A stretch of DNA of 64,000 bases from Planctomycetes bacterium UBA1146 (GCA_002311345.1 DCAA01000006.1:14532-78531), one strand, 5' to 3'; shown: positions 25,001 to 46,802, numbered from the stretch's first letter. Numbers and translations are program-made. Notes: generated by a model not told the origin, from the letters alone.

Positions 25001-26842
25001 CTGGCACGAAATGCCAAGTTGATCGCTGCTTTCAATCATCTGGATATCTTCATCGATCCCGATCCTGACCTGGAATTGGCTGCAAAGGAACGGGAGCGGC
25101 TGTTCAAACTGAAGAGATCGAGTTGGCGAGATTATGATCCAGAGTTGATTTCCGCAGGAGGAGGGGTTTTCGACAGGAGTGAGAAAAAGATCAGCCCTTC
25201 TCCGGTTGCCAGAGTGCTGCTCGGTTTGCCCGGTAGTGGAGACTTCTCACCGGAAGAAGTGATCCGCTCCATCCTCGGTGCGGAAGTCGACATGATCTAC
25301 AACGGAGGGATCGGTACTTTCATCCGATCTTCCCAGGAGAGTAATCGAGATGTCAACGACGCTTCGAACTTTGCCTGCAGGATCGCAGCCGATGCTGTGC
25401 GTGCCCGCATGGTCATCGAGGGCGGAAATCTCGGAGTGACTCCCAAGGGCAGAGTTGAACTGGCCCGCGCCGGAACGCAGATCAATACCGACTTCATCGA
25501 TAACTCGGGTGGGGTGGATTGTTCTGACCACGAGGTAAACCTGAAGACCCTACTGCATGATGTGGTTCGCTCGGGTGCGATCACCCTGGAAGAACGAAAT
25601 CAGGTCCTCATCGATGTTCAAGCAGATGTTTGTGAACAGGTGCTCGACAACACGCGAGAACAGGGTCATCTGCTCGGCCTCGATGAGGTTCGTTCCAATA
25701 GTGACCCCTTCTCCTTCGAGAGAACCATGATGATCCTCGAAGATCGGGGAGTCCTGGACCGGGAGGCGGAATCTCTGCCGAGTCACGAGGAACTTGCGAC
25801 TAGACATGCAGCAGGAGGTGGGCTGACTCGACCGGAACTCGCCGTTGTCGGAGCACACGCGAAGATGGATGTCTATCGTCGTCTTCTCAAGCAACCAGAG
25901 GGTCGAGTCGATGAGAACAGACTTCTCTTCGAATATTTTCCCGAGAAGATTCGAGAGCAATTTCCCGAATCGATCGCGAAGCATCAATTACGTCGAGAGA
26001 TCGCGATGACGGTGTTGACCAACAAGATCGTGGATCGTGGCGGTTCTTCATTCTGCCTCGATATGGAGAGAGAGACGGGAAGATCCATCGGTCATGTCGC
26101 GAGATCATATCTGATGGCCGATGATCTCATCGGTGCCGAGGAGATGAGAAAAGAAATCCTTGCACTCGAGAACATCTCTTCAGAAGTGGTCTACACTTCT
26201 CTGGTACGAATCGAGGAGGCTCTGCGCAGGACCGCTGCCTGGCTGCTGTCGACCAATGACGATGACCGTCTCGACCGCATCGAAGCCCTCATCGCCGAGG
26301 GAGTGAGGCCGCTGCAGGAGTACGAGGATTCGATTCCCGGTTGTCTCGCGGGCCCGGAACTGGAGCGTCATGAAAATCACCTGCAGGAGGCGATGGCACT
26401 CGGGTTGTCCGAAACTTTCGCCCAGCGTATGACGAAGTTCGAGTATCTCACCGCCGGGGTGCGGATTCTGGACATCAGTCGTAGTTTCGAAATCCGTGTT
26501 CCTGATGTGGCCCGCCTCTACTATTACCTGGGCAATCGCAGTGGACTCCATCCGCTGGTGAGAAAGTGTGACGAAGCGGATTTCTCGGGCCGCTGGGATT
26601 CGCTCTCGATGCGGATTCTGCGCAATACCATCCTCGATGGTCTCTGGGCTCTGGTGGCCAAGATCTGCAGCAAGGCGCCAAAAGACCCCAAAGATGGCTG
26701 GATCGAGCAACTGGTCGAGGAGCTGCGCAGAAAGCCGAGTTTCAAGGCGATGGAATCGGACATTCGCCGCATCGGCTCGGAAGAACTCAGCATCGCATCG
26801 GTACAGGTTCTGAGTGTGCGTTTCCGCAGATTCGTTCAGTGA
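22049..26842 (+). CDS. gdh: NAD-specific glutamate dehydrogenase of the large ~180 kDa bacterial GDH family.
   Basis: 1597 aa. Family-typical core GGLRWSDRTTDYRTEVHGLQRTQMVKNVLIVPVGAKGGFILRKP and a GDH catalytic region (GDMSGDVFGNGMLL). Confidence 0.85.
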   Translation: MQESGTSKRWSGRLVGLLDPSDPRLTDDRLAPILRDFLEQYDSVLDELDDEDVLRSLAEDLLTTFNLFLKRKKEEILVHLSAEETPQEESSTTFIDVVCKDQPFIVDTLEMILDEFHLEVISKHTASAPVIRDRDGTIQAIDGTAAKARDEIICHFEISDISKQEVREQLLEQIRERLSMAAIAVKDFKRMKGVLRDSIRSIRRSAAGDPEGDYNQTRNLLEWLLQDHFILFGVKRWACSDESLSSLEEDISLGISCPDSEDDEVIRHAIERLGSDNPPIDRLVSFKGMAESFIHRQGKIDHIVLKEPGGLSSTRFVHIWGLFTFKAVQTPGDQIPHVRNKFERVISQHSFPRGGMRYKAYQNSFNSIPVEFLFQAQSSEIDAVIQAIHFVERSKEIRGHLVVDEERRKGLYFLITPRDGYSEEQRSRIEEILFELMGASYSDSRVKLGKHGTVLLSFFFTATDKLHEVTPEQIEEKVRLVAGSWSDRLHRQLHLDIGSAAESLFRSYRDAFPKGYQISHSPDEGVQDIEKLEQIRPSDEFGMAFSVFRNEIDRDRSSARLRIYQRKNLFLSTTLPILGNFGLEIVDQNAFQVSPSTGEKLTIDTFQVHGVTTDDHPLVTRSALVVDALKSIFNGSSSSDLLDRLVLEVGVDHRDVDLIRNQLHFLHQLGISTTIAFASGTLCQHAGITRKLLEYYHIRFDPDLDLEMCERKSESAEIHGDILRALNDVRSSAQDIFLRRVLGIFESTLRTTRFHHNQDPLQAYKYDSVALPVGAHPRPWREIFVHHPEVEGVHLRGGPLARGGLRWSDRTTDYRTEVHGLQRTQMVKNVLIVPVGAKGGFILRKPASDRGERREQADRLYRVFVEGLLRLTDNVVDQQVVVPERTIRWDGDDPYLVVAADKGTAHLSNTANEISKEHGFWLGDAFASGGSNGYDHKKLAITARGSWEQAKLHFRKLEIEFEKDPYSVVGIGDMSGDVFGNGMLLARNAKLIAAFNHLDIFIDPDPDLELAAKERERLFKLKRSSWRDYDPELISAGGGVFDRSEKKISPSPVARVLLGLPGSGDFSPEEVIRSILGAEVDMIYNGGIGTFIRSSQESNRDVNDASNFACRIAADAVRARMVIEGGNLGVTPKGRVELARAGTQINTDFIDNSGGVDCSDHEVNLKTLLHDVVRSGAITLEERNQVLIDVQADVCEQVLDNTREQGHLLGLDEVRSNSDPFSFERTMMILEDRGVLDREAESLPSHEELATRHAAGGGLTRPELAVVGAHAKMDVYRRLLKQPEGRVDENRLLFEYFPEKIREQFPESIAKHQLRREIAMTVLTNKIVDRGGSSFCLDMERETGRSIGHVARSYLMADDLIGAEEMRKEILALENISSEVVYTSLVRIEEALRRTAAWLLSTNDDDRLDRIEALIAEGVRPLQEYEDSIPGCLAGPELERHENHLQEAMALGLSETFAQRMTKFEYLTAGVRILDISRSFEIRVPDVARLYYYLGNRSGLHPLVRKCDEADFSGRWDSLSMRILRNTILDGLWALVAKICSKAPKDPKDGWIEQLVEELRRKPSFKAMESDIRRIGSEELSIASVQVLSVRFRRFVQ

Positions 26843-26854
26843 CCTCTGACCGCT

Positions 26855-27829
26855 TCACTGTTTCAGGATGACGATCGACAACAGCCACAGCGCATAGAGC
26901 AGCAGCAAGAAGAAGCCGAGACCATTCTGGAGGCGTGGCGATTTCATGGGGACCAGTAGCAGGCAGATCGAAATCGTCATGATGACCATCACCACCAGAT
27001 CCATCTGGATTTCACCGATTCGAATCTCGAGGGGGCTCACGATGGCGGCAGCCCCGACGATGGCGATGAAGTTGAACAGGTTTGATCCCAGCACGTTTCC
27101 GACGGCGATTTCTGAAGACCCCCTGCGGAACGCAGCAAGTGAGGCGAACAGTTCTGGAGCACCGGTGCCTGCTGCGACGATGGTGAGGCCGATGGTGCTC
27201 TCCTTTATGTCGAGCGATTTGGCGAGGGTGATGGCTCCATTGACGAGGAACTCACCTCCTATCCATAGTAGCAGGGTTCCCAGGATCAGAGACGTTGTCA
27301 CTTTGAGGGAACTCTCTCCGGTGGTCATCTCATCGACCTCTCGGAGGACTGAGGATTGTTTGCGTCCGGTCCTGTAGATGAGCAGCAGCAGGATCAAGAA
27401 AACGATCTCCAGCACGATTCCTACGCTCCATGTCAGAGTTGATATTCCGTCGGATCTCTGATCGAGGTAGAGAGGGATCAGAAGTGCCAGTGTCGATAGG
27501 ACCAGCAATTTTATTTCGAACGATCCGGCCTCGATCCGACTTTGCCGGTTCAAGATGAGTACCAATCCCAGCACCAGTCCGAGATTGAAAATGTTGGAAC
27601 CGACGATGTTGCCGATGGCGAGCCCCGAACTCTGCTCGAACTGAGCGATCACGCAGACGACCAGTTCCGGAAGAGAAGTTCCGGCAGCGACCACCGTGAT
27701 TCCTATGAAGAGGGGCGAGACCTTCATCCGTAGAGCAAGGTTTGCGGCCCCGGCGACCAGGAAATCCCCTCCCCAGGCCAGGATCGCAAGCCCTCCCAGC
27801 AGGCTCGCAACCGCCATTAGATTCTCCAC
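26855..27829 (-). CDS. Ca2+:cation antiporter of the CaCA family (YrbG-like Na+/Ca2+ exchanger).
   Basis: Two internally repeated alpha-repeat halves (GDFLVAGAANLA...GTSLPELVVCV and GGEFLVNGAITLA...GTGAPELFASL), which are typical of CaCA, with ~10 transmembrane segments. Confidence 0.75.
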   Translation of the reverse strand: MENLMAVASLLGGLAILAWGGDFLVAGAANLALRMKVSPLFIGITVVAAGTSLPELVVCVIAQFEQSSGLAIGNIVGSNIFNLGLVLGLVLILNRQSRIEAGSFEIKLLVLSTLALLIPLYLDQRSDGISTLTWSVGIVLEIVFLILLLLIYRTGRKQSSVLREVDEMTTGESSLKVTTSLILGTLLLWIGGEFLVNGAITLAKSLDIKESTIGLTIVAAGTGAPELFASLAAFRRGSSEIAVGNVLGSNLFNFIAIVGAAAIVSPLEIRIGEIQMDLVVMVIMTISICLLLVPMKSPRLQNGLGFFLLLLYALWLLSIVILKQ

Positions 27830-27839
27830 CGGTGCCTTT

Positions 27840-28982
27840 CTAGAAGGGGGCGAACAGGATGCTGAAGAAGGCTGTGACCGGTTCCTGTTCGCGAAGATCC
27901 TCGGTGGAGTCGCGCAGCAGGGTCAGGGTTTCTCGGGCATCCTGATACAACTGCTTGTCGGTGATGAGGCTGTACAAGGTACCAGGACCGGTTTCGATGG
28001 ACGAACTGATACTGGCGATGGATGAGACGGCATTATCCAGCTTCGTGGCGAGTTCCTTGTCGTGGAGAATGCGACTGAGTGATCCGGTGCCGGATTCTGT
28101 CAGTTGTTCGGAGGCGGCTCTCCAATTGGCCACGGTATCTCTCCAGGTCTCTTTGAAGGTCGCATCGTTGAGAATCATGCCGGCGAGACCATCGGTACCG
28201 GTCAGTTTCTCCGTGATCTTGTCGATCCTGTCGACAGCAGTCTCCACTTTTTCACGAGCAACTTGGTCCTTGAACAGCCAGCCTATCGTGCCCTTTCCGT
28301 CGTTGAACTCCTTCATCGCCAGATCGATTCGGCCCAGTACCGACTTGAACTGTTTGTGCTGATCCGAATCTTCCAGGAACAATGATCCCAGGATTCCATT
28401 TCCCTTGGAGAGATTGGTGGTGAGCATTTCCATATTTCTGACCGTGGTCAGGAAATTTTCCTTTGCCTCTGGGTCCTTCAGGAGACCGCCGAAGATGCCC
28501 TCTCCGGAGTCGAGTGCGGTCAGCAAACTATCGAGTGAAGCCAGGCCGTGCTCGATCCGCTCTCGATTTTCCCCCAGGATCTTGCCCACCATGCCCAGTA
28601 TGTCTCCTTCGGATTTCCCCCTCAGATTATCGATGGGGACCAGATCCCCTGTCCCCGGATCGTAGTGGAGGTAGGAACCACCCAGGGCACTTGCGGGCTT
28701 GACCAGGAAGGTGTGATCTTCTCGTGGACTGAGATCGCTGCTCAATTTGATACGCACGAGGGCGCGTCCACGATCCTGTTGCAGTTCGATCTTGTCGACG
28801 GCACCTGCCCTGAGGCCCCGGACCCGTACCGGATCACCGGGTCCCAGTCCTCCCACGTTCTCGAATCCGATCTCGAGTATCAGATCGGATCCGGTCGGGA
28901 ACTGTCGCAAGTAAAAGGTGAGTGCCCCGACCAGCGCCAGTGAGGCCAGAAAAATGACTCCGACGATGAAATCTCTTGTCAT
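27840..28982 (-). CDS. mlaD: MlaD/Mce-family substrate-binding protein with a long C-terminal helical extension.
   Basis: N-terminal transmembrane anchor, then an MCE domain (ILEIGFENVGGLGPGDPVRVRGLRAGAVDKIEL). At 380 aa it is about twice the size of E. coli MlaD. It overlaps the mlaF stop by 4 nt. Confidence 0.7.
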   Translation of the reverse strand: MTRDFIVGVIFLASLALVGALTFYLRQFPTGSDLILEIGFENVGGLGPGDPVRVRGLRAGAVDKIELQQDRGRALVRIKLSSDLSPREDHTFLVKPASALGGSYLHYDPGTGDLVPIDNLRGKSEGDILGMVGKILGENRERIEHGLASLDSLLTALDSGEGIFGGLLKDPEAKENFLTTVRNMEMLTTNLSKGNGILGSLFLEDSDQHKQFKSVLGRIDLAMKEFNDGKGTIGWLFKDQVAREKVETAVDRIDKITEKLTGTDGLAGMILNDATFKETWRDTVANWRAASEQLTESGTGSLSRILHDKELATKLDNAVSSIASISSSIETGPGTLYSLITDKQLYQDARETLTLLRDSTEDLREQEPVTAFFSILFAPF

Positions 28983-29776
28983 GATAGACCGCTCTCTTCC
29001 TTGTCTGGCTGGTCGGGCTCGAGTTGCTCGCTCGTCTCGCGGCCCAGTGGGCCTTCGACCAGTCCGTGAATGAATTGCTGTACTGCTGGATCGCTGGATT
29101 CCTGGATCTCATGTGAATTGCCGAGAGCGATCACCTTGCCTGCATGGAGCAAGGCGATGCGGTCGGCGACTTCGAAGGCGGAACGCATGTCGTGGGTCAC
29201 CACCACCTGTGTGATCCCCGTTCCGTGAAGTTTCTGGATGAGGCCATTGATGATGCTCGATGAGATCGGGTCGAGACCTGAAGTGGGTTCGTCGTGGAGC
29301 AAGATCTCCGGATGGCCGATGAGGGCACGGGCCAGTCCAGCGCGTTTTCTCATGCCACCCGAGATCTCGGAGGGCATTTTGTCACCATGCCCGTCCAGTT
29401 CGATTTCCGACAGGACCTCCTCGACTCGCTCCTGGATCTCCTTTTCCTTCATGGAGTGACGCTCACGAAGAGGAAGTCCGACGTTGTCAGCGATGGAGAG
29501 CCAGTTGAGCAGGGCCCCGTCCTGGAACAGATAACCGATCCTGCTGCGAATCTCGAGCAGAGCCGCCTGATGGCGAGCCGAGATCTCCTGGCCCAGTACC
29601 TCCACCCGGCCTTGATCGGCGGTCATCAGACCGACGATGTGTCTCAGGGTGACGCTCTTTCCGGTGCCGGAGCGTCCCAGGATGACCAGTGTTTCTCCCT
29701 GCTTTACCTCCAGGTCGAGTCCATCGAGGATCGTTCTACCACCGAGTTTCTTGTGGACATTTTCGAGGCGGATCAT
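28979..29776 (-). CDS. mlaF: ABC transporter ATP-binding protein, MlaF-like.
   Basis: The start is taken at internal MIRLENVHKKLGG (ATG 29774-29776, ATGA overlap with mlaE); the track ORF extends upstream through mlaE. It has Walker A (GRSGTGKS), an ABC signature (ISGGMRKRAGLARAL) and Walker B (LLHDEPTSGLD). Confidence 0.8.
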   Translation of the reverse strand: MIRLENVHKKLGGRTILDGLDLEVKQGETLVILGRSGTGKSVTLRHIVGLMTADQGRVEVLGQEISARHQAALLEIRSRIGYLFQDGALLNWLSIADNVGLPLRERHSMKEKEIQERVEEVLSEIELDGHGDKMPSEISGGMRKRAGLARALIGHPEILLHDEPTSGLDPISSSIINGLIQKLHGTGITQVVVTHDMRSAFEVADRIALLHAGKVIALGNSHEIQESSDPAVQQFIHGLVEGPLGRETSEQLEPDQPDKEESGLS

Positions 29777-30630
29777 GACAGAAAACTCCAGGAGATGTAG
29801 TAGCCCAGGATGATGACGAGAAGGAATGAGACGACCACTGATCTTCGAGCGGCCTGACCGACACCCGTGGCTCCGCCTCGGGTGAGGAGACCCTGAGTAC
29901 AACCAACGGTGGCGATGGTGATGCCGAACACGACCGACTTGAGCATCCCGGTGAACACATCCCGAAATTCCAGGCTCTCGAGTGCATCGGTGCGATATGC
30001 CAGCCACCCGACATCGAACTGGGAATTGGCGACCAGGCTACCTCCGAGGATTCCGATGAATGCCGCGAAGATGGTCATCACCGGAGTCACGAGAGTGAGA
30101 GCCACCATGCGTGGCAGCACCAGAAAGCGAATGGGGGGGATCGACATGATGCGAAGTGCGTCGATCTCCTCGGAGATCTTCATCGTGCCAATTTCTGCTG
30201 CGATTCCACTGCCGAGACTTGCGGTGAGGATGAGAGCGGTCATGAAGGGACCCATCTCGCGTATCATCGAGACGGCAACGATCGGCCCGATGAGACTTTC
30301 CTGCCCCAGCTCCTCCAGCGAATTACCGCCATTGAGCGCCAGGATCATACCGGTGAAGAGGGCGACCACGGAGGTGACGAGAAAAGACCCGATGCAGTAG
30401 CTGTAGCACAGATCGAGACTGTCACGGATCCGTCGGCGACTGAACAAGAAGGGCGTGTTCAACATCGTCCGGACGAGGAGGACCAGACCAAATCCGGTGG
30501 AATCAGCGCTACGCCGAAGGAAAGACAAGAGGGGAGCGATGTAGCGACCGATGAACACTCCCAGTTTCTCGACCAAACTTCTCATCCTGCTCCATCCCCG
30601 CGGCCGTGGTCGGCCGTTCCCCAGTTGCAA
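29773..30630 (-). CDS. mlaE: ABC transporter permease, MlaE-like.
   Basis: Polytopic permease with conserved MlaE-like segments (IAVSMIREMGPFMTALILTASLGSGIAAEIGTMKISEEIDALRIMSI). The start is either 30630 or the internal Met at ~30585. Confidence 0.75.
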   Translation of the reverse strand: MQLGNGRPRPRGWSRMRSLVEKLGVFIGRYIAPLLSFLRRSADSTGFGLVLLVRTMLNTPFLFSRRRIRDSLDLCYSYCIGSFLVTSVVALFTGMILALNGGNSLEELGQESLIGPIVAVSMIREMGPFMTALILTASLGSGIAAEIGTMKISEEIDALRIMSIPPIRFLVLPRMVALTLVTPVMTIFAAFIGILGGSLVANSQFDVGWLAYRTDALESLEFRDVFTGMLKSVVFGITIATVGCTQGLLTRGGATGVGQAARRSVVVSFLLVIILGYYISWSFLS

Positions 30631-30673
30631 GATCTGCGATCAACTTACCTCCGCGAGACGGGAGGTGATCTCC

Positions 30674-31987
30674 TCAGAGAGAAATGTACAGGAGACGCCA
30701 GCGAGAGTCATCCTGTCGGACGCCTCTCTCTCGTGAGAGAAGTCCACCCAGGACCGAGAAACCACCTTGTTCGGTGCCGCTTTCGGCGGTCAAGAGCCCC
30801 CAGAGAAGTTCCAGACCCCAGTAGTCTTGCTCCTGGCGCCATCGAAGGATTTGCCAGGCGCGCGAATGAGACCAGGAGATCCCGTCCTGGTCATCGAAGG
30901 GGAGGATCGCCGGGGCAGATCCTGTCTTGCGTCCACTGGCATCGGTCTCCCATCGTGCCAGCGGCCACAGCAGATAATTCGATCTCTTGCCTCGCTCGGG
31001 ATCCTCATCGGTGATGCTGCGCCAGATAGGAAAGAGACGCCGTACTTCTCGGCGCCGACCCGCCGCCTGCTGATCTTCCCACTGCCAGATGGGCCACAGG
31101 AAGAAGCCACTGCTGAGACCGGGTCGCTCATGTCTTCCCCAGATGGGGTAGAACTCGAGACGAGTCCATTCCCCCTTCCGTTTCCCGATGGTCCAGGGCA
31201 GCAGTGACCAACTCGATGTCTCGCTCCGAGAATCATGTTCTTCGGTCCATAGCGGGTAGAGGATCGTTCTTGCGATTCGAGATTTCGATTCGATCTTGCC
31301 ATAGAAGGGCCACAGCCACCTGGAGATGGTTGGATTGTCCGTATCGAGTTGAGTTCTCGTTTGGTGCCAGAAGGGCCACAGGATGTAGGTGGATTCGTCA
31401 CGCAATTTTCCATCGCTGGTGAAACCCCGACTGCGGGAATAAAAGGGAAAGACGCGCAGTCCCTGACGAAGAGGACCTTCCTCGATTTCGACGAAAGGAA
31501 ACAGCCAGTAGGTGGAGACCTGGTCTCTGTCGCGCAGTCGTGCCCACAGTGGGAACAGGACGAAGTCGATCCGATCCTTTCCCAGGATCCCCTTGATGGT
31601 TCCACCGAGCGGGGCAAATGCGAAGTAGTTCCCTTCTTCATCGTCGAATCCCCACAGGAAAAAGGGCAGCAAGAAGCCATCGATATCCTCGCTCCCATCG
31701 GTATGGGTGTAGGCCATCCGGTGGTAGAGGGGGATGAACCAGGTCTCCCGGACCCGCTCCTCGATTCGGTCGCGAAAGAAGGGGTAGAGCACCCGAATTT
31801 CTTCGCTATCGGGCGTCTTGCTATGAGAGAAGAAGGGCCAGAAGTGTTCCGATTCCCGCACGATTCCGCCAGCAAGTTGTTCGCTGCGTTCGATGTAAAA
31901 GGGAGGAAGCCCCCGATCGGCATCGACTGGGGTTACGCATCCTGAGACCAGGGTGCTGCAAAAGATGGTCGCCAGCAAGATCCTCAT
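30674..31987 (-). CDS. Lipoprotein built from ~16 tandem aromatic-Pro repeats, of unknown family.
   Basis: The start is taken at MRILLATIFCSTLVSGC, a lipobox, with ATG at 31985-31987 that overlaps the upstream stop by ATGA. A [LFY][WLFY]P[FLI][WFY] core recurs every ~22-27 aa: FWPFF, LYPFF, FIPLY, LLPFF, LFPLW, LFPFV, VFPFY, LWPFW, LWPFY, LYPLW, FYPIW, LWPIW, LFPIW, LLWPL. Confidence 0.6.
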   Translation of the reverse strand: MRILLATIFCSTLVSGCVTPVDADRGLPPFYIERSEQLAGGIVRESEHFWPFFSHSKTPDSEEIRVLYPFFRDRIEERVRETWFIPLYHRMAYTHTDGSEDIDGFLLPFFLWGFDDEEGNYFAFAPLGGTIKGILGKDRIDFVLFPLWARLRDRDQVSTYWLFPFVEIEEGPLRQGLRVFPFYSRSRGFTSDGKLRDESTYILWPFWHQTRTQLDTDNPTISRWLWPFYGKIESKSRIARTILYPLWTEEHDSRSETSSWSLLPWTIGKRKGEWTRLEFYPIWGRHERPGLSSGFFLWPIWQWEDQQAAGRRREVRRLFPIWRSITDEDPERGKRSNYLLWPLARWETDASGRKTGSAPAILPFDDQDGISWSHSRAWQILRWRQEQDYWGLELLWGLLTAESGTEQGGFSVLGGLLSRERGVRQDDSRWRLLYISL

Positions 31988-34900
31988 CGGTCCAACCGGA
32001 CGGGTAGCATCAGATCGGGGCAGCATCCTTCCCAGATCCGGTCGAGATCCCTGTGCAGAACCATCCCCGGAGTGAGAGCGAGATACTTGGTCGCGCCGCT
32101 GCCTGTATCATCGTCGGTGACGGCGATGCCGATTCTCATACGCATACCTGGCCAGGGTACGAAATCATCTTCACCTCTCTGTTCAGCGATGCCCTTCCAT
32201 GGGATTGTCATCTCGTAAACTGCTCCCGTTCCATCGGCTTTGCGAACCACGATGTGTTCCCCTTCTGGTCCATCTTCATCCTCATCCCTGAAGGGGGGAG
32301 GATCTTCTCCTGACTCATCTGTTTCTCCCTCCTCGGGAACCGGCTGAGGCCGCGGAGGTACGAAGGCCAGGGTCAACACCTGATCATCGCTACGTGGCCG
32401 AACCCCTCCATCGCCTTTCGTATCGAGTACAAGGATCAGGCAATCACCGATCCACCTCTTTGCGTCTCGGTCGTGGCTGGTGGTGTTATCGTCATCGATG
32501 TCCACGGCAATATGCAGCCCTTCTTCAGACCAGCCGAGGAAAACTCGACCGGAGAGGTCTGCCCGGTCTTGCCAGGGGATCCGTGGTTCGCCCGGCCCCT
32601 GTAGCCCCCGGATGAAGCGTGGCCTCTCGAGCGGAATGCCACGGGTAGCATTCCACGGCTCATCCAGTGATCCGTCGATGATGGGTGCGACCTGCATCCT
32701 GGCAATCTGGTGATCCTTTCGTGCCTCCAGGGCTTGTTGTCGCGCTGCTCCTTCGAGCATCCAACTGGCTGTGGCTCGCTGCAGCGGATCCATGTTCAGA
32801 TCGAGGATCGTACGCTCGATCAAGTCGATGGCCTTGTGCGACTCCTGCAAGTCGAGCAATCGAACGGCCTCATCTTTCCAGTTGGTTGACTCTTGCAGGG
32901 ATTTCCACGCCGTGATCTCTCGCTTACGTGCCGTGACAGAACGGAAACCTGCTGCACCACGGGATGAAACGGTGAAAAGCGTATCGCCGACCACTGATGC
33001 ATGGTGGAGCCGGCCGAGCGGTTTGATGTGGTCCGTCACTTCCTGGATTCCCTGGCGTGAGGTGAGCGGGGTACCGGTCGATCGATCGAGTATGGTCACC
33101 TCGCCCCGAAGTCGATCGGCCACCACGACCCAGTCTCCACGAGGCTGGAGATTCACCGAGTCATAGGCAGGAGCCAGTTGGTGCGTCCACTCCAGTTCCG
33201 CTTCCGGGATCGCCAGTAGAGACAGCCCGAGTGTCGATCTCAGTTTCAGTATGGTCCTCTTCTGGAAATCGCCGCACACCAGCAGTAGTTCATCTGCATC
33301 GATCTGGAGTGCCGTGATTCGACGACGTTCTTCGGAGAGGTGGCGTTGCCAGCCTACCTTTCCCGTCTTCATGTCGAGTCCGAGCAGGGTGGGTCGATCC
33401 GCCCTCCAGTACAACTCGCATACCAGTTGATCTTCCGAGGGTGAGGGGTGCATTTGCGAGATGATGTGGGGCAGGTCCGTGGTCCACAGGGTCTCTCCGT
33501 CATCGGAGTATCGACTCACGTTACCGCCTTCGAGCGCCACGATGAATCCCCCCGGAACCAACACAGGAGTCGAAGCGAGAGAAGCTGCTGCCTCCTCCAG
33601 TTTCAGCTGCTGGAGAATCTCACCATCCTCCATCGAGCGCAGTTCGACCATGTCAGGGATTGCATACCCGATGAGCAGTCGTTCATCCCGGATCACCGGG
33701 TCATCGAGCAGAGCACCCCTTCGAGGTTGCGTCCACAGTCTCTGGCCGCTTCTGGCATCGAAGGCGATGATGCGTTGATCTTCGGTGACGGTGATCAGGG
33801 TCCCTGCACCCGCACACGATTGCGCGATACGAATCTCCTGATCCGGAAGATCATCATCGGATCGGATCCGGTGACTCCAGGCAACAACGCCATCCTCGAG
33901 TTGCAATCTCCAGATCTTGGTTCGATCGTGGAAGATCAGACCTGTGTCATCGATGTGAACAGGTGCAGAAGGAAGATCTCTGCGTGAAAGGATGATGCTT
34001 CCTCTGATCTCGATCGGGTCTCGATTCAGATCAGTTCTCCACAACAGAACACCGTCGCGTGAGTCCAACAGTTGCGCAGATGAGCTGGTGAGGATCAACA
34101 CACGCGAGTCATCCTCGAAATGCTCGTTGCCAGAGAGGGGCCAGATCTCACTGGAGCGAGTCTGACCCAGTTCCAGTCTGCCACTCCAGGCACGATGAAG
34201 TGGAAGGCCCGGGTGGTTTCTGCGGACTTCAGGCAGTTTCGTGATTTCGTTGCGCAATTGCTGAAGTCGTTCCCCGAGGGTGACCGTTCGCTCGATTCCA
34301 TCGATGATCCGGGTCATGGGACGGTCTCCATCGGATCTATTCAGTTGTTCGATCTGATCGATGGCTTGTCTCAGGCGTCCCTGTTCACGCAGAACTTCAC
34401 ATCGCCTCAGTTTTCCGATCACGGCCTCGTCGCTATCCGGCTCACGAACGATCAACAGGTCGATCTGGTGGAGGCAGCGGTCCAGATCCCCGATGCGGTA
34501 ATAGGCTTCGGCAGCTTCCAGTCGCGCATTTCTTCCGGTAGCGCAGCCAGGTCGCATCAGAGCCAGAGTTTGCCAGCGAGCAGGTGAAGGAAAGTCTGCC
34601 AGTTCTCTGGCCTCAGCGACAGCGCGGACCTCACGCTGGGCAACTCTCTGCGGGCCCCCGGCGGCTCGATCCAGTTCTAGTAACAGGTGAGTGAAGGCGG
34701 CCTCTGCTGGCACCCAACTGTTGTTTCGAGATTCGACCAGTGTAGTCGCGAGTAGACGGGGCGATTCATCCAGCATCCTTGTGCAGATCAGGGTGGCACA
34801 GCCCAGTGCTCCGGCACGCAGCGAATGAACCGCACGCTGCCAGCCAGATGCGATTCGATCTGGCGGGTGCGATTCGGCACCGATGAGAGCGGATTCCAGC

Positions 34901-36993
34901 AAGAACCTCTCGGTCTCGGGGAGCACCAGATCGGAGCGTTCCAGTCGAAGCTCCACGGTCCGGCGTAGAGCTTCCTGCTGGGGCGAGTCGCCGGACAGGT
35001 CCAGCGACTGTCGTGGATAGTGTCCCGTTAACACGCTGGTCCAGAGATCGTGTTTCGCCGTCTCGGAAGGCACCAGGATTCGCACATCGACGCCTGATCT
35101 GGTCAGTATTGCCCCGTCGAGAGGCTGCATCTCACGTGAGCTAGCTCCGATCCCCTGGACCGATTGAAGCACCCCCTCCGGGCTGTACGAAATAATCGCG
35201 TCGCCCGAGCTGACCCACCAGCCGCCCCCTGCAGCAGCGATCACGTCTGCGATCTCTCCAGAAAGCGGTGCGGGCAGTGCACTTCGCCACAGGAATCGCG
35301 GTGAATCATCGCTACCACAACTCCAGCAAACTAGTTCTGATCCCTCGATCACCACCAGAGAATCTCCCGTCGAAGAGAGGCACCATCGACGCGCAGAGCG
35401 AGTGGGGATGGTTTCCAGGATCTGGCCATTGCGCGCATCGAGGATGGAGATTCCCGGGGCTCCGGGGGGCAAGGCGAAGAGCCGGAAACCGCTTCTACGC
35501 AGCAACTGGCCACTGGCAGGGTTTTGCATCAAGTGGTTGCGAAGGCCAAAACTGCTCGGACTGTTCAGATCCTGCATCCACTCCACCGCGCCATCCGAGG
35601 TGCGCAGGCTGATGACGGTTCCACGACCGCTCGACCAGTGGATTCGACCGGTTCCGGCCACCGGAGTTGCCGGCGAGGACCGCAGTGCCAGCCACGTGGA
35701 ACCGGTCGTTTCTCCCAGATGGCGAACCCAAAGGACTCTACCCCGCTCGTCGATGTGACTCGCGAAAGCCTCGACACGATCCCCCTCACTCGCGACCGCC
35801 ACGACAACGATGCCGCCCGGAACCTTACACGGGGAAGAAAGGGCCCGGATCGCTTGAGGCGTCTCTTCGGGTCCGAGGATGGCGTCGAGATCGACCTGCC
35901 ACAGTTGCTGACCGGTAGATCCATCGAGTGCCTCGATGCGGTCGGTGAGGCTCGCGATGATCATCGATCCACGTCGAACCGGACGAAGGATGGTTCGAGG
36001 AAGTGGATTCCTGTGCTGCTGGGGGAGAACCCGTCTCCAGATCTCCTCGGCGCTGGCGAGATCTATCGCACGGATCTCACCAGGAAACTGGATCCACACC
36101 CGTGAATCATCGGAGACAGCTCCGACACGCCCCTGGGCGAATTGCCACGGGGCCTCGAATCGATCAGATTCGCCGAGGCCAGCCTCGCAGTCGATGGGAA
36201 TCAGCACCTCGTCTTCATCGATGGGGGGGCCGACGGCTGTGGTTGCCATGGAAGACGATTCGACACCGGGATTCTCGATCCAGCGCAGTTCGACGGATCG
36301 TTGCCAGCTGTGGAGATCACCGCGTTCGAGTGCAGATTCTGCCAGAGACCTGGCCAGAGGCGCAGGAATTACTCCGATCGGAAGGTCCATCAGCAAGCAG
36401 GTACGTCGACGATCCGCACCAGCATCAAGACCCGGCACAGGAGTTTCAGGGATGCGAGGCAAGGTGCGCAAACGGATCTCGTCGATCACTCGATCCCGAA
36501 GCGGCACCTTCAGTTGTGCGACCGTTCCCCGCAGATAGACACCGGCACCGACATGGAGTCCTCCTCCCACCGGAGTACTCCCGCCCGGATCCCCGTCGAC
36601 GAGTCGTTCGGCGAGGGCCGCCAGGGAATCGAGGATTTGTGCCTCGACCCCGGTTTCCAGGCTCTCCTCGATGCGCCGCACCAGAGGAGTGAGTTCGTTG
36701 CTACTGGCCGGGATCCACACCGGATCGGCCGCCCACACCGGTGTGATGGTCAGAGTCATCGATGCGCAAACCAGCAGTGCGCAGAGTAGCCTCACGGAGA
36801 TGCCGCGAGGCAGCAGCGAGAAGATGCTGCGAAGGTGTCGCGAGTTCGGGTCTGACGGTCTCATCAGAAGGCCTCCTGGAGTTTCTCCGGGGTCCCTCTG
36901 CTTGTAAGAGATGTGTCCCTCTGGCTCAACCAGTGGTGGCGGAAGAGCGGCTGCCGATGGAGCCCAGAAGGGCCGCTGCTGCGTCTGCAACAC
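31984..36993 (-). CDS. Giant secreted protein (~1630-1670 aa) with PQQ-like β-propeller repeats, TPR segments and a C-terminal CBM9-like domain.
   Basis: Several PQQ-type blade motifs (GQQLWQVDL, GAVEWMQDL, DGVLLWRTDL, DGVVAWSHRI, GQRLWTQP, GETLWTTDL, GKVGWQRHL). The C-terminus resembles a family-9 carbohydrate-binding domain (VAPIIDGSLDEPWNATRGIPL...FLGWSEEGLHIAVDIDDD). The likely true start is the internal MRPSDPNSRHLRSIFSLLPRGISVRLLCALLVCASMTLTITPVWA at 36864, which has a signal peptide and removes the overlap with the response-regulator gene. Confidence 0.6.
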   Translation of the reverse strand: MLQTQQRPFWAPSAAALPPPLVEPEGHISYKQRDPGETPGGLLMRPSDPNSRHLRSIFSLLPRGISVRLLCALLVCASMTLTITPVWAADPVWIPASSNELTPLVRRIEESLETGVEAQILDSLAALAERLVDGDPGGSTPVGGGLHVGAGVYLRGTVAQLKVPLRDRVIDEIRLRTLPRIPETPVPGLDAGADRRRTCLLMDLPIGVIPAPLARSLAESALERGDLHSWQRSVELRWIENPGVESSSMATTAVGPPIDEDEVLIPIDCEAGLGESDRFEAPWQFAQGRVGAVSDDSRVWIQFPGEIRAIDLASAEEIWRRVLPQQHRNPLPRTILRPVRRGSMIIASLTDRIEALDGSTGQQLWQVDLDAILGPEETPQAIRALSSPCKVPGGIVVVAVASEGDRVEAFASHIDERGRVLWVRHLGETTGSTWLALRSSPATPVAGTGRIHWSSGRGTVISLRTSDGAVEWMQDLNSPSSFGLRNHLMQNPASGQLLRRSGFRLFALPPGAPGISILDARNGQILETIPTRSARRWCLSSTGDSLVVIEGSELVCWSCGSDDSPRFLWRSALPAPLSGEIADVIAAAGGGWWVSSGDAIISYSPEGVLQSVQGIGASSREMQPLDGAILTRSGVDVRILVPSETAKHDLWTSVLTGHYPRQSLDLSGDSPQQEALRRTVELRLERSDLVLPETERFLLESALIGAESHPPDRIASGWQRAVHSLRAGALGCATLICTRMLDESPRLLATTLVESRNNSWVPAEAAFTHLLLELDRAAGGPQRVAQREVRAVAEARELADFPSPARWQTLALMRPGCATGRNARLEAAEAYYRIGDLDRCLHQIDLLIVREPDSDEAVIGKLRRCEVLREQGRLRQAIDQIEQLNRSDGDRPMTRIIDGIERTVTLGERLQQLRNEITKLPEVRRNHPGLPLHRAWSGRLELGQTRSSEIWPLSGNEHFEDDSRVLILTSSSAQLLDSRDGVLLWRTDLNRDPIEIRGSIILSRRDLPSAPVHIDDTGLIFHDRTKIWRLQLEDGVVAWSHRIRSDDDLPDQEIRIAQSCAGAGTLITVTEDQRIIAFDARSGQRLWTQPRRGALLDDPVIRDERLLIGYAIPDMVELRSMEDGEILQQLKLEEAAASLASTPVLVPGGFIVALEGGNVSRYSDDGETLWTTDLPHIISQMHPSPSEDQLVCELYWRADRPTLLGLDMKTGKVGWQRHLSEERRRITALQIDADELLLVCGDFQKRTILKLRSTLGLSLLAIPEAELEWTHQLAPAYDSVNLQPRGDWVVVADRLRGEVTILDRSTGTPLTSRQGIQEVTDHIKPLGRLHHASVVGDTLFTVSSRGAAGFRSVTARKREITAWKSLQESTNWKDEAVRLLDLQESHKAIDLIERTILDLNMDPLQRATASWMLEGAARQQALEARKDHQIARMQVAPIIDGSLDEPWNATRGIPLERPRFIRGLQGPGEPRIPWQDRADLSGRVFLGWSEEGLHIAVDIDDDNTTSHDRDAKRWIGDCLILVLDTKGDGGVRPRSDDQVLTLAFVPPRPQPVPEEGETDESGEDPPPFRDEDEDGPEGEHIVVRKADGTGAVYEMTIPWKGIAEQRGEDDFVPWPGMRMRIGIAVTDDDTGSGATKYLALTPGMVLHRDLDRIWEGCCPDLMLPVRLDR

Positions 36994-37858
36994 AGCGCAA
37001 GTAGGTCAGTGGGGGCATTCCAGGAATCTCGGCGTGATCGGCATCGATCACGAAGAGGCCTTCTAGTCGCCCCAGCCAGAAGAGAGGAAGAACCACTGCT
37101 GCCTCCTTCTCGGGCAACAGATCGGGAAAATCTGCCTCTCGCCATCGTTCTCCTGGATCGGTGAATCGACCCACTGGCAAGGAAAAATGTTCGGCCGGAA
37201 GTTGTGTCGAGCTGGAAGAACATGGGATCAGCAGCTGATCCTTGCGCACGAATAGAAGTGCACGGCAGCCGGTCGGAATGGTAGAGAAGATCAGATCCTG
37301 CAGTTGATCCTCCGTGGCGGATGCGATCTTTCGAAGCAATTGATCGACCGGGAATCCAGCTTCGGTGGCGCGGCGTTCTCTTTGTTGAGCCTCCAACCGG
37401 TGCAGGGTTAGTTGCAATTCTCTCTGCAGGTCTCGGTTTGTCTGGCGCAACTTCCGCCGTTCGGCTGCGCGAAGAAGCACTTCGAGGAGATCCTTCTGCA
37501 GGTCCACGATCGGCTTTTCGATGTAGGAGTAGGCTCCCAGCCTCATTGCGGCCAGCGCACTCTCGAGCGTTGCCGCTCCAGTTGCCATCACAACCTCGAC
37601 TTCGGGTGCGATCTTCTTGAACTCCCGCAACACGTCGAGTCCGTCGATCCGGGGCATCCTCAGATCTACCAGTGCAACATCGGGTTCGCGTTGGTGCAGC
37701 ATCGCCAGCCCCTCCTCGCCACCGCTTGCCGACCTGACTTGAATTCCTTCCGATTCGAGAAATAGTTGCACGCTTTCTCTGACGAAGGGGTCGTCATCGA
37801 TGATGAGGATTTCCAGTTCTGTGGCCGAGCCTGGGTTCATCGGGATTGTCCCTGCCAC
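36926..37858 (-). CDS. Response regulator with a REC receiver domain and a C-terminal GAF-like domain.
   Basis: Receiver motifs (ILIIDDDPFVRESV..., phospho-acceptor VALVDLRMPRIDGLDV, T/K region VVMATGAATLESALAAMRLGAYSYIEKP). The C-terminal ~170 aa are uncharacterised. It overlaps the kinase gene by 22 nt. Confidence 0.75.
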   Translation of the reverse strand: MAGTIPMNPGSATELEILIIDDDPFVRESVQLFLESEGIQVRSASGGEEGLAMLHQREPDVALVDLRMPRIDGLDVLREFKKIAPEVEVVMATGAATLESALAAMRLGAYSYIEKPIVDLQKDLLEVLLRAAERRKLRQTNRDLQRELQLTLHRLEAQQRERRATEAGFPVDQLLRKIASATEDQLQDLIFSTIPTGCRALLFVRKDQLLIPCSSSSTQLPAEHFSLPVGRFTDPGERWREADFPDLLPEKEAAVVLPLFWLGRLEGLFVIDADHAEIPGMPPLTYLRCVADAAAALLGSIGSRSSATTG

Positions 37859-39603
37859 ATCGAAGAGACATCGAGTGGATCGAGTTCCTCGCTGCCGAGT
37901 CGAGCCATGGAGTCGGGCAGTCTTAGGCGGAAGGTCGTTCCGCTCCCGGGGGAGGTGGTCAGTTCGATTTCTCCACCGGCACCATCGATAATCCTTTGTA
38001 CGACGAAGAGCCCGAGTCCACTGCCCCTGTCGGCGTCCTTGGTGGTGTATAGCGGTTCGAAGGCGCGTTGGGCGACCTCTGGATCCATCCCGGGACCATC
38101 GTCGATGACTTCCAGTTCGATTCCGCCATCGGGATTTTTTTTGCTCCGGATGGTTAATTTCGATCCGGTTCCAGACTCACGGACTGCATCTGCGGAATTG
38201 AGGATCAGGTTCATGATCACCTGTTGTAGTGCCGTGGCATCTCCCGACAGATGGAGCCCTTCTTCGATCTCGAGTACCGTCTCGAGACCAGCATCTCTGA
38301 GACGTGCTTCACAGATCGCCAGCGTTCTCTCGATGGCATCGGAGACGCAGAAAGGCGCCTCTCCACCGGGATGGAAGGGACGAGTCCGTGCAAACGCGAG
38401 CAGGTTTCTGCACAGTGCGCGGCAGAAATCTGCGGCATCATGAGCGCGCTTCAACATATCCTTGGTGCGGGATCCTTGCTCTTCTTTATCGATTTCTCGC
38501 TGAGCCAGTTGTAGGAATCCGATCACTGATGCGAGTGGATTGTTCAGATCATGGGCGAAGCCACTGGCGAGCCTTCCGATGGCAACCATCTTCTCCTGGC
38601 GCGACAGTTGTTCGCGGCTGGCGAGCAGTTCTTCATGTGCACTGCGCAGTTCCTCGAAGAGCCGAGTATTCTGGAGATCGACCGCCAGTTGTGCAGTTAC
38701 CGCGGCGACCCAGTTCAGTTCCTCGACCTGGAACGGCTCGGTTCCGAAGCCTCTTTCCAGATAGAGGACCGTGGCGTTCTCTCCTCGGCCGGCCAGCGGA
38801 AGCGCCAGTGCCGAGATCGCCTGTTTTCGACGCAAGCATACGCTTGCTTCGAAAGATTCTCCGACCTGAGAAGAGATGAGTCCCTCACGGCGTCGTCTCG
38901 CTGCGTCGATGAGGGTGCGACTGGGGTCGAGGTCTTCCAGATCGATCATCTCATTGTCGCGTTGACCCACGGCATGGGGACCTGTTTCGTCATCCCAGCG
39001 GATCCAACCCCAGGCCTCGAAGTGAACCCCTGTCCCGATCACGGCAACCACCTGACTCACCAGTTCTTCTGCTGGCAAGTCCGACTGGGCGAGCATGCCC
39101 ACCTCGAACAGAGCTTCCTGAAGGCTCTTCTTGACCTGGGTTGGGGGCGCATTCTCCCGAAGTCGTTTTTGCAGGCTCTCCGGATCGATCTTCAACGAAA
39201 AAGTACTGAGATGCTCCTGCACCGCGTGGACTGCGATACGACAGTCGCCGATACCGATCACATCTCCGGGTTCGAGGATGGTCCGGTCGACGATCTCGTC
39301 ATTGAGAAGGGTCCCGTTGCGGCTGCCACCGTCACGTAGCAACCAGGAATCATCTCCGAGAGGGATCACTTCGGCGTGATGACGAGAAGCTCGTGTGTCA
39401 TCAACGATGAGGTCATTGGTCGGATCACGACCGATACGAACCGGATCGTTTCCGAGTACGAAGCGTTGCCCACGACCTGGTCCCTCGACGATGATGAGGT
39501 GCACTTGAATCCTTCCGGGACCTCTCTGGAGAGACAGAGGGGTTCCGAGAAGATTACGATGATGCCTCAGATGGAGCCGACGGGGCCGCAGGAAGTGGCT
39601 CAA
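37837..39603 (-). CDS. Sensor histidine kinase with FHA, GAF, HisKA and HATPase_c domains.
   Basis: N-terminal FHA (GQRFVLGNDPVRIGRDPTNDLIVDDTRASRHHAEV...SRNGTLLNDEIV), a central GAF-like region, the H-box (AIGRLASGFAHDLNNPL), and N/G boxes (LNSADAV..., IDDGPGM..., GSGLGLFVV). Confidence 0.8.
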   Translation of the reverse strand: MSHFLRPRRLHLRHHRNLLGTPLSLQRGPGRIQVHLIIVEGPGRGQRFVLGNDPVRIGRDPTNDLIVDDTRASRHHAEVIPLGDDSWLLRDGGSRNGTLLNDEIVDRTILEPGDVIGIGDCRIAVHAVQEHLSTFSLKIDPESLQKRLRENAPPTQVKKSLQEALFEVGMLAQSDLPAEELVSQVVAVIGTGVHFEAWGWIRWDDETGPHAVGQRDNEMIDLEDLDPSRTLIDAARRRREGLISSQVGESFEASVCLRRKQAISALALPLAGRGENATVLYLERGFGTEPFQVEELNWVAAVTAQLAVDLQNTRLFEELRSAHEELLASREQLSRQEKMVAIGRLASGFAHDLNNPLASVIGFLQLAQREIDKEEQGSRTKDMLKRAHDAADFCRALCRNLLAFARTRPFHPGGEAPFCVSDAIERTLAICEARLRDAGLETVLEIEEGLHLSGDATALQQVIMNLILNSADAVRESGTGSKLTIRSKKNPDGGIELEVIDDGPGMDPEVAQRAFEPLYTTKDADRGSGLGLFVVQRIIDGAGGEIELTTSPGSGTTFRLRLPDSMARLGSEELDPLDVSSMWQGQSR

Positions 39604-44792: not shown

Positions 44793-45452
44793 ATGTTCTC
44801 CAGTCATCACTGCGTTACCGATGGGGGTCGCCCCACGGTCGTCAGGTCGAACACCACTCGTTCGGCCGGTTTTACTCTCATCGAACTGATGATCGTCGTT
44901 GCCATCATCGCAGTCCTTGCGACCCTGGTTACCAAGATGATCCAGCAGGCACAGGCGAAAGCTGCCGAAGCGGGTGCAACTACAACCATCTCGACCATCT
45001 CCTCGGCTCTGGAGGAATATAACCGTGATGAAGGTGTTTACCCCGGCTGGGAACTCAATGTGGATGATGTAGACCTGGAAGAGTTCAACGCCTTTCCGGT
45101 GCTCTATGAATCGATCGTCGGGGAACGACCTCCCAACGGCAAGGGTGGGAAGAACTCTCCCTATGTAGATCTGAGTACGGAAATGATCGTCATCGTGGAT
45201 GACGAATACGATGGCGAATACAAGCGACCCGGACGTGATGATATGTTCGATCCGGAAGTGGAAAAGTTCTATTGGGATCCCTGGAGTGAACCGTATCGCT
45301 ATCGGGAGAATAGTTCCAAGCGGAGAAAAGAGGACTGGATGATCAAGCGTTCGACCTTTGATCTCTGGTCTACCGGTCCTGATGGAGAGAACTCGGCCTG
45401 TTTCGGAATCCCCGAGGAAGGGGAAGAGTACGATGACATCGGTAACTGGTAA
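44793..45452 (+). CDS. GspG-like type II secretion pseudopilin / type IV pilin-like protein.
   Basis: Prepilin N-terminal methylation motif AGFTLIELMIVVAIIAVLA with Glu at +5, and the GspG C-terminal signature WDPWSEPYRY...FDLWSTGPDGEN. The start is placed at MFSSHH (44793); the track ORF begins at 44715. Confidence 0.7.
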   Translation: MFSSHHCVTDGGRPTVVRSNTTRSAGFTLIELMIVVAIIAVLATLVTKMIQQAQAKAAEAGATTTISTISSALEEYNRDEGVYPGWELNVDDVDLEEFNAFPVLYESIVGERPPNGKGGKNSPYVDLSTEMIVIVDDEYDGEYKRPGRDDMFDPEVEKFYWDPWSEPYRYRENSSKRRKEDWMIKRSTFDLWSTGPDGENSACFGIPEEGEEYDDIGNW

Positions 45453-46176: not shown

Positions 46177-46802
46177 TACCCCTACGCACTTCTAGACGTA
46201 TGTGGGCAGGTTTCACCCTGATTGAGATGATCGTGACCATCGGGATCATCATCGTTGCAGCAGGTTTCATCGCTCCGGCGGTGATGGCCATCTTTCAGGA
46301 TCGGCGCCTCGAAAATGCTGCAGCGACTATCATCACTACCATCAACGAGGCGAGAAGTGCTGCGGTCACCAAGAAACAACTACACTCGGTCATCTTCCTC
46401 CGGGCCGGAGTACGTCTCTATCGTCATCCCAAAGGAGAAGATCCCGGAGGATTCGTAGGTGGTATCCGTGCCATCAATGTTCCTGGTGCGGATCACCTCA
46501 GTTATGACATGCCTTGTGCCCGGTATCTCGCAGCTGACCTCGCTACACAATTGCAAAGCCAGATCGATGGAACCAATCAGGACGATTGGAGACCTTTGCC
46601 CGAGGATGTGTTCATCACCTTGCGGACCGATGGAACGATTGATTTCGGAACCAACGATGACATTCCCAGTTATCGCTTCAATAACGATCCACCTAGTGGA
46701 GGGGATCTGATTCTGCGACAGAAGGGGGATACCCGGGTCTGTTTCATCGATATCCGCCCAACCGGGCGGGTGGCGAGCAAGGTCGGGGAGGAATTCGAAT
46801 GA
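46173..46802 (+). CDS. Pseudopilin, GspH-like minor pilin.
   Basis: Motif AGFTLIEMIVTIGIIIVAAG directly after a short leader. It overlaps the upstream gene by ATGA. Confidence 0.6.
   Translation: MIPLRTSRRMWAGFTLIEMIVTIGIIIVAAGFIAPAVMAIFQDRRLENAAATIITTINEARSAAVTKKQLHSVIFLRAGVRLYRHPKGEDPGGFVGGIRAINVPGADHLSYDMPCARYLAADLATQLQSQIDGTNQDDWRPLPEDVFITLRTDGTIDFGTNDDIPSYRFNNDPPSGGDLILRQKGDTRVCFIDIRPTGRVASKVGEEFE

Follow-up and report, generated by a model that had tools for sequence, protein, structure and literature searches.

A conserved β-hairpin-repeat protein encoded with MlaEFD: a candidate distal partner of a trans-envelope MCE transporter in Planctomycetota

A survey of 1,083 genomes has shown that the ATP-binding cassette (ABC) module MlaEFD is near-universal in diderm bacteria and that MlaA, MlaB and MlaC are essentially proteobacterial (Grasekamp et al., 2023, PMC10665443). 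The ancestral majority form combines MlaEFD with an extended MlaD: 85% of MlaD proteins are long, the mean length reaches 374 residues, and systems of this kind probably bridge the cell envelope directly (PMC10665443). The C-terminal β-barrel that forms the outer-membrane end of many long MlaD proteins is completely absent in the Planctomycetes-Verrucomicrobia-Chlamydiae (PVC) and Fibrobacteres-Chlorobi-Bacteroidetes (FCB) groups (PMC10665443), which leaves the outer-membrane contact of MlaEFD in the PVC group unexplained. Systems that comprise only MlaEFD make up the majority in diderms, and many phyla possess neither MlaA/MlaC nor an MlaD barrel that could link such transporters to the outer membrane. 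Here, we describe a gene cluster at positions 26855-36993 of a 64,000-nucleotide stretch of DNA from Planctomycetes bacterium UBA1146 (GCA_002311345.1 DCAA01000006.1:14532-78531; the whole stretch is referred to as the window), in which mlaE, mlaF and mlaD directly follow a gene for an exported protein made of β-hairpin repeats. We consider it probable, albeit well short of assured, that the repeat protein, MlaE, MlaF and MlaD form a four-component trans-envelope MCE lipid transporter, with the repeat protein acting as the distal partner.

Four-gene arrangements of a comparable kind have been described before. Operons encoding MlaE, MlaF, an MCE protein and a lipoprotein are established in Brucella (PMC12436622), and both MpcEFDA of Brucella abortus and PA3211-PA3214 of Pseudomonas aeruginosa are chimeric Mla-Pqi systems with four genes (PMC12436622, PMC13631591). 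In PA3213 of P. aeruginosa and PqiB of E. coli, C-terminal peptides of the MCE needle dock on a lipoprotein ring at the outer membrane, and their deletion abolishes binding (PMC13631591).

The repeat gene and its conserved association with mlaEFD

The cluster consists of six co-oriented open reading frames (ORFs) that run head to tail on the minus strand, as described in an earlier note made by a model from the sequence alone. The DNA sequence also contains the three ATGA overlaps listed there, which couple the gene of a giant exported protein (see below) to the lipoprotein gene, mlaE to mlaF, and mlaF to mlaD. The lipoprotein gene (30674..31987, minus strand) encodes the 437-residue β-hairpin-repeat protein, recognizable by a lipobox and 17 hairpin-tip motifs. 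It is followed by mlaE (29773..30585, minus strand), which codes for an MlaE-family ABC permease of 270 residues (PF02405, E=7.7e-69) that reaches 213.8 bits against TIGR00056 (cut-off 212.2). The product of mlaF (28979..29776, minus strand) is an MlaF-type ABC ATPase of 265 residues (PF00005, E=2.6e-31), whose best NCBIfam match is MlaF PRK11831, at a score below the equivalog cut-off. The next gene, mlaD (27840..28982, minus strand), specifies a long MlaD/MCE protein of 380 residues (PF02470, E=3.6e-12). The canonical ABC core of an Mla system, comprising MlaE, MlaF and an MCE-domain MlaD, is thus encoded in one place.

The mlaE reading frame most likely starts at the ATG at 30585 and not at a TTG codon. 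With this start, the gap between the lipoprotein gene and mlaE, previously given as 43 nt on the basis of the TTG, spans 88 nt (30586..30673, minus strand), a distance conserved in relatives. An alignment of six relatives reveals two stem-loops in this spacer. One of them (30601-30616, CGGCCGACCACGGCCG, i.e. CGGCCG-ACCA-CGGCCG) is located directly 5' of the GGAG ribosome-binding site and the ATG of mlaE and is kept in five relatives, in which C/T and G/A exchanges in both arms (GGCCG/CGGCC to GGTCG/CGACC) preserve the pairing. The other hairpin, CCTCC-N8-GGAGG, lies just 3' of the stop codon of the lipoprotein gene. These elements may set the ratio at which the lipoprotein and the ABC genes are expressed.

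No gene for MlaA (PF04333), MlaC (PF05494) or a STAS/MlaB protein was found among the ~40 larger ORFs of the 64-kb window, nor did the flanks of ten distant loci contain MlaA, MlaB or MlaC. The earlier note had reported this absence correctly for the cluster but had treated it as an anomaly. Since a long MlaD without MlaABC is the majority form among diderms (PMC10665443), the mlaEFD genes of the window instead represent the common ancestral type. Similarly, the ~380 residues of MlaD, which had been regarded as unusual, correspond to an ordinary length (PMC10665443).

The linkage of the repeat gene with mlaEFD, whose comparison across relatives the earlier note had proposed, proved to be strongly conserved. 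When ten distant family members (23-41% identical) were viewed on their longest contigs (loci of relatives are designated by L-numbers), all ten showed the order repeat gene, MlaE, ABC ATPase, MlaD on the same strand, and their flanking genes all differed. The same order was present in every close-relative contig that reaches beyond the repeat gene. In L011 and L014, two contexts unrelated to each other, a 4-nt overlap joins the repeat gene to mlaE, and in several contexts the genes of the module overlap or are no more than 20 nt apart. It could be argued that this pattern reflects mere conserved synteny, with the repeat protein being some other envelope component whose gene lies in the mlaEFD operon by chance. 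A scan for consensus sigma-70 promoters and intrinsic terminators returned nothing beyond shuffled expectation and is thus uninformative on this point; however, the retention of order and orientation amid entirely different flanks, together with the tight spacing of the genes, makes such an explanation very unlikely.

Upstream of the module, at the place taken by the giant gene in the window, other lineages carry different genes that, judging by their sequences, encode lipid or lipoprotein machinery. A gene for an MMPL/RND-type transporter (925-931 residues) is located at most ~400 nt upstream of the repeat gene in L012, L018 and L019, and a gene for a LolCE-like permease of the MacB_PCD/FtsX type directly precedes it in L016, L017 and L020, in the last case with a 4-nt overlap. 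The window itself stems from a marine Planctomycetota lineage of metagenome-assembled genomes (MAGs), with contigs from UBA1146-type MAGs being 97-99% identical. Two contigs encoding lipoproteins with 99% and 70% identity, L001 (NVWX01000005.1) and L005 (QNYK01000057.1), one of which has the full gene order, were deposited as MAGs of a 'Dehalococcoidia bacterium' and a 'Bacillota bacterium', respectively; both names probably result from faulty binning or labelling of contigs that belong to Planctomycetota.

The repeat protein belongs to a large family that has so far escaped annotation. A word search returned 226-242 homologs of the lipoprotein, and an exhaustive profile search retrieved 2,877 cluster representatives at E<=1e-3, including 1,138 at E<=1e-30. 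No Pfam domain is recorded for any family member, and all of them are called "hypothetical protein" in their sources. The view that the lipoprotein is novel and unlike the described Mla partners is borne out by searches at E<=10, in which neither Pfam nor NCBIfam yielded a match for it and the family profile matched no PDB sequence, even though the structures of PqiC and PA3214 are in the PDB. The family is not mentioned in the Mla/MCE literature searched, the coverage of which was incomplete and included PMC10665443, PMC13631591 and PMC12436622. The family as a whole looks exported. Of 288 members analyzed for export signals, 35% (including the clade of the window) carry a lipobox, and another 57% start with a hydrophobic signal sequence of the plain type. 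Taken together, gene order and sequence identify the family as what appears to be a genuine, conserved and unannotated partner of the mlaEFD module, and with ~2,900 cluster representatives it merits definition in the domain databases. Some of its members are considerably longer than the protein of the window: P0223 (850 residues), P0217 (653 residues) and P0226 (1767 residues, nine matched stretches) possess 200-400 additional N-terminal residues ahead of the repeat domain or else several repeat domains per chain.

The repeat protein, MlaD and a possible bridge across the envelope

The lipoprotein starts with a signal peptide and a lipobox, MRILLATIFCSTLVSGC (LVSGC). The remainder contains 17 motifs of the type [hydrophobic][aromatic]-P-[hydrophobic], one more than the approximately 16 aromatic-Pro repeats counted previously, which recur with a period of 17-24 residues. 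Each motif comprises a near-invariant proline in the turn between two strands, with hydrophobic residues at positions -2 and +1 and aromatic residues at positions -1 and +2; the rest of each repeat is polar, with charged residues accounting for up to ~49% in the family. Structure prediction, as suggested in the earlier note, produced a confident all-β model: based on an alignment of 30 sequences, AlphaFold2 folded the chain into 41 consecutive short β-strands, which form an uninterrupted meander, plus a single short helix (predicted local distance difference test, pLDDT, 90.3; predicted TM-score, pTM, 0.72). Because hydrophobic and aromatic residues flank the proline at every turn, one edge of the predicted meander forms a continuous aromatic-hydrophobic rim, and its body is charged.

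In Foldseek searches, the model obtained TM-scores of no more than 0.19, and its best matches, all of them weak, were single-layer sheets, namely the TCP domain of CPAP, OspA and MORN proteins. The TCP (G-box) domain of CPAP/SAS-4, the MORN sheets and the central sheet of OspA show no sequence relationship to the repeat protein, and only 130-170 of its 437 residues align, with root-mean-square deviations of 5-9 Å. Moreover, these sheets lack the aromatic-Pro tip motif and are found in eukaryotic cytoskeletal or spirochaete surface proteins rather than in partners of ABC transporters.

An all-β protein at the distal end of an MlaEFD system could conceivably be an integral outer-membrane β-barrel and, as such, a separately encoded counterpart of the Veillonella-type MlaD barrel. 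In line with this idea, some family members end in ...LLYIPF or in W, reminiscent of the β-signal recognized by the β-barrel assembly machinery (BAM). However, the predicted strands are short (mean 6.1 residues, maximum 8), 33% of their residues are charged, and only 6 of the 41 strands have a hydrophobic face. In addition, only 18% of the members end in F or W, and the closest structural matches, though weak, are proteins with single-layer sheets (see above). Such a barrel is therefore very unlikely. We rejected it on strand length and composition, as a barrel of this type would be expected to have amphipathic transmembrane strands of ~9 or more residues and an aromatic β-signal at the C-terminus.

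The putative receiving end of the bridge needs to be considered together with MlaD. This protein has an N-terminal transmembrane helix (residues 6-25), followed by its MCE domain (residues 38-110) and a tail. The long helical tail seen earlier is not a single plain helix, since residues 160-365 form six repeats of ~34 residues, each composed of a GxGxxGxL motif and a helix. With a length of 380 residues, helix-containing repeats between residues 120 and 365 and no mlaABC genes, the protein shows the features of a trans-envelope MlaEFD system (MlaD of ~370 residues with a helical extension). The repeats are followed by a conserved hydrophobic peptide, EDLREQEPVTAFFSILFAPF, at the C-terminus, and the end of the chain (...EQEPVTAFFSILFAPF) extends only ~13 residues beyond the last helix, so that a C-terminal β-barrel of the Veillonella type is absent. 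The terminal motif is kept in ten MlaD proteins of these loci, down to 23% identity, with Pro368 being invariant and a terminal Phe present in nine of the ten. The number of repeats in these proteins varies from two (in a 266-residue protein, L011) to six (in the window), and the C-terminal peptide is constant; a tube built from such tails would thus differ about two-fold in length between lineages. By analogy, the conserved C-terminal peptide may parallel the docking peptides of PA3213 and PqiB.

It is tempting to speculate how these components may work together. By analogy with the solved Mla, Pqi and Mce1 complexes, two copies each of MlaF and MlaE would constitute the ATP-driven engine in the inner membrane. 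Six membrane-anchored MlaD subunits would form an MCE ring, and their long tails of repeats and helices would assemble into a periplasmic tube that ends in the conserved hydrophobic peptides. The exported repeat protein, which is predicted to be lipid-anchored in the lineage of the window, could then receive or brace the tip of this tube at or near the outer membrane, with the rim of 17 aromatic-Pro hairpin tips serving as a surface for contact with lipids or the membrane. In this arrangement, the repeat protein would take a role that Proteobacteria assign to MlaA and MlaC. Pqi, MpcEFDA and PA3211-PA3214 fill it with PqiC-like rings, and diderm Terrabacteria with the C-terminal β-barrel of MlaD. 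A glycerophospholipid or another envelope lipid would be the most likely cargo; we infer both the cargo and the stoichiometry of the complex.

Several points weigh against a distal, tube-binding role of the repeat protein. First, its contact with MlaD and its location at the outer membrane are inferred. Second, those family members that carry taxon names come exclusively from Planctomycetota and Kiritimatiellia (including Pontiella). Third, ~57% of the sampled members lack a lipobox, so that lipid anchoring at the outer membrane is not a family-wide trait. Fourth, an MlaD tail of two to six repeats fits a rigid, ruler-like needle poorly, and the tail of the window protein does not match Pfam Helical_needle even at E<=10; the MlaD homologs of the ten distant loci do match this model, with varying strength. 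Finally, the predicted sheet may lie flat as a ribbon, curve into a belt or close into a ring. A mean-field direct coupling analysis of 322 family sequences (effective number, Meff, 280), conducted with regard to closure or stacking of the sheet, gave a signal swamped by artefacts from gaps and indels, and we discarded it.

The prevalence of plain signal peptides also lends some credit to a different role, in which the repeat protein works as a soluble lipid carrier, or belt, in the periplasm, similar to MlaC or an apolipoprotein. Instead of forming a fixed dock at the outer membrane, it would shield acyl chains with its rim and shuttle them to or from the MlaD ring. Its continuous hydrophobic rim would suit this purpose, its highly charged body should render it soluble, and the β-belt of ApoB100 is among the weak Foldseek matches. 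On the other hand, the ApoB100 match has a probability of only ~0.33 and a TMq of 0.12, the proteins in the clade of the window are lipid-anchored, and long MlaD tails with a conserved terminal peptide are typical of bridge-type rather than shuttle-type systems. We therefore regard a soluble carrier as unlikely, although it deserves more attention than the outer-membrane barrel.

Returning to the role of the repeat protein as the distal partner of a bridge, a more specific version of this proposal can be formulated, which we put forward as a tentative idea that is plausible but less likely than not. The family would then represent an undescribed class of lipid-transport components of the envelope. 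The ~40 strands could form a single-layer β-belt whose aromatic-Pro tips provide a hydrophobic track or a membrane-inserting crown and which sheathes or caps the MlaD tube, thereby constituting the outer-membrane end of MlaEFD bridges in the PVC group and other lineages; in one lineage of Planctomycetota, a giant scaffold with BamB-like and CBM9-like domains would additionally have been recruited. Whatever its shape, a conserved, unannotated fourth gene whose product has an unusual and confidently predicted fold provides a concrete candidate for the outer-membrane contact in PVC bacteria.

Neighboring genes and the rest of the window

The giant protein is encoded directly upstream of the lipoprotein (31984..36864, minus strand). 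Its gene most likely starts at the ATG at 36864, which is preceded by AGGAGG at a distance of 8 nt and yields a product of 1626 residues, the length common to all database homologs. With this start, the apparent overlap with the adjacent response-regulator gene vanishes, and the earlier estimate of ~1650 residues is slightly too high, although the description of an exported giant protein is correct. The protein has a Sec signal peptide and a strong PQQ_2 match (E=2e-35), with propeller regions at residues ~305-558 and ~963-1308, in agreement with the propellers previously recognized. The additional domains proposed for it are less clear: the TPR in the middle is weak (TPR_14, E=0.002), and the C-terminal match to CBM9_1 (PF06452; 22.0 bits, E=1.6e-4) falls just below the gathering score of 23.4. 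A match to PF06452 is recorded for the homologs in L010 and P0343. Modelling of the C-terminal 318 residues with AlphaFold2, based on 11 sequences, gave an unusable result (pLDDT 44). The closest solved relative of the giant protein is BamB. We considered and rejected its identification as BamB proper, because it comprises 1626 residues with two propeller regions, as opposed to a single eight-bladed lipoprotein of ~390 residues, and scores 80 bits against NF008351, far below the cut-off of 423; the similarity is thus limited to a BamB-like fold.

Further upstream, the cluster is bordered by genes for a response regulator with a REC domain (PF00072) and an unassigned C-terminal half (36926..37858, minus strand) and an FHA-GAF-histidine kinase (37837..39603, minus strand; Pfam FHA, GAF (weak), HisKA and HATPase_c), with the kinase gene overlapping the start of the response-regulator gene. 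In L002-L006, L009 and L010, the response-regulator gene likewise precedes the giant gene, and the kinase gene is syntenic in L002-L006 and L009. The giant gene itself adjoins the repeat gene only in L002-L007, L009 and L010 and is absent from the eight distant contexts outside this Planctomycetota group. Conversely, P0343 represents a giant homolog with 27% identity and the same PQQ and CBM9 architecture, whose gene lies beside genes for a cyclic nucleotide (cNMP)-binding protein and an NAD kinase, without mla genes. From this distribution, the giant protein and the kinase/response-regulator pair appear to be additions of one Planctomycetota lineage.

The last gene of the cluster (26855..27829, minus strand) follows mlaD after 10 nt and encodes a YrbG-type CaCA calcium/sodium antiporter, as evident from two Na_Ca_ex domains (PF01699) and a TIGR00367 score of 201.7 bits (cut-off 179.65). 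Its identity and position had been assigned correctly, but its inclusion in the conserved module does not hold: the gene is kept only in L003-L005, whose lipoproteins are at least 70% identical, and is absent from L009-L020. We thus rejected the antiporter as part of the system on the grounds of synteny. In E. coli K-12 (L021), yrbG (NC_000913 3340275-3341252) adjoins mlaF in divergent orientation. Since only close relatives retain the planctomycete gene, this shared adjacency of CaCA and mla genes may be a coincidence.

These distributions also bear on the possibility that the giant protein, the lipoprotein, MlaEFD and the antiporter constitute a single novel machine for a glycan or glycolipid. 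Such a unit would be consistent with the retention of the ATGA coupling between the giant and lipoprotein genes in L003, L004 and L006, with the persistence of the giant and response-regulator genes upstream of lipoproteins that are only 29-41% identical (L009 and L010), and with the recognition of CBM9_1 in the two homologs mentioned above. However, the giant protein does not follow the module beyond its Planctomycetota group, nor the antiporter beyond close relatives, and a giant protein can occur without mla genes. The hint at a glycan, taken earlier from the CBM9-like domain, is weakened by the subthreshold match and the unusable domain model in the window; CBM9/DOMON-like folds are not known to be specific for glycans. 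Overall, a dedicated glycan machine is distinctly improbable.

Other parts of the window contain features with no apparent connection to the transporter. A gene for an NAD-specific glutamate dehydrogenase of 1597 residues, complete with all its ACT and helical-motif domains (22049-26842, plus strand), converges on the cluster and keeps its position in L009 at 48% identity. Three further ORFs, all on the plus strand (14243-16891, 17150-17668 and 58893-59786; 882, 172 and 297 residues, respectively), have no Pfam match at E<=0.001. At 45358-48869 (plus strand), the genes of two proteins with a prepilin-type methylation motif (N_methyl) at the N-terminus flank a small hydrophobic ORF, an arrangement suggestive of a gene cluster for pseudopilins or type IV pilin-like proteins. 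Close to its right end, the window contains dnaA (60313-61785, plus strand), and the cumulative GC skew climbs almost monotonically from end to end; a replication origin, if there is one nearby, was not located.

Comparison with described MCE systems

The relationship of the module to the well-studied MlaFEDB-MlaC-MlaA system of E. coli lies in the homologous MlaE, MlaF and MCE-domain MlaD proteins and in the YrbG-type CaCA neighbor. Beyond this common core, the two systems diverge. The E. coli genes are arranged in the order F-E-D-C-B, MlaD comprises only 183 residues, and transport involves the soluble carrier MlaC, the STAS protein MlaB and the α-helical outer-membrane lipoprotein MlaA, none of which was found in the window.

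A closer parallel is provided by MlaEFD of Veillonella parvula, which shares with the window the order mlaE-mlaF-mlaD without mlaABC, an extended helical MlaD (~374 residues) and an inferred bridge (PMC10665443). However, the Veillonella-type MlaD carries its own C-terminal β-barrel, whereas MlaD of the window ends in a hydrophobic peptide of 13 residues, and a separate all-β gene precedes the operon.

The greatest similarity is seen with MpcEFDA of B. abortus and PA3211-PA3214 of P. aeruginosa. Like the module in the window, they combine an MlaE/MlaF-like ABC transporter with a long-tailed, single-MCE protein that has a C-terminal docking peptide (putative in our case) and with an exported lipoprotein; they likewise lack MlaA, MlaB and MlaC and have been proposed to form an envelope-spanning bridge. 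The window thus has the gene content of a chimeric Mla-Pqi system, but its lipoprotein is not PqiC-like. The lipoproteins of MpcEFDA and PA3211-PA3214 are PqiC-like proteins of ~190 residues that form octameric rings and are encoded last, whereas the repeat proteins of the window family measure 430-500 residues, show no detectable relation to PqiC and are encoded first. PqiC itself, with ~190 residues, adopts an α/β fold, in contrast to the predicted all-β architecture of the 437-residue repeat protein. A further difference lies in the MlaD tail, which in the window type consists of two to six GxGxxGxL repeats, unlike those of MpcEFDA and PA3211-PA3214. By analogy, the four-gene module described here resembles these chimeric transporters in its overall design, with an unrelated β-hairpin-repeat protein apparently replacing the PqiC-like lipoprotein.

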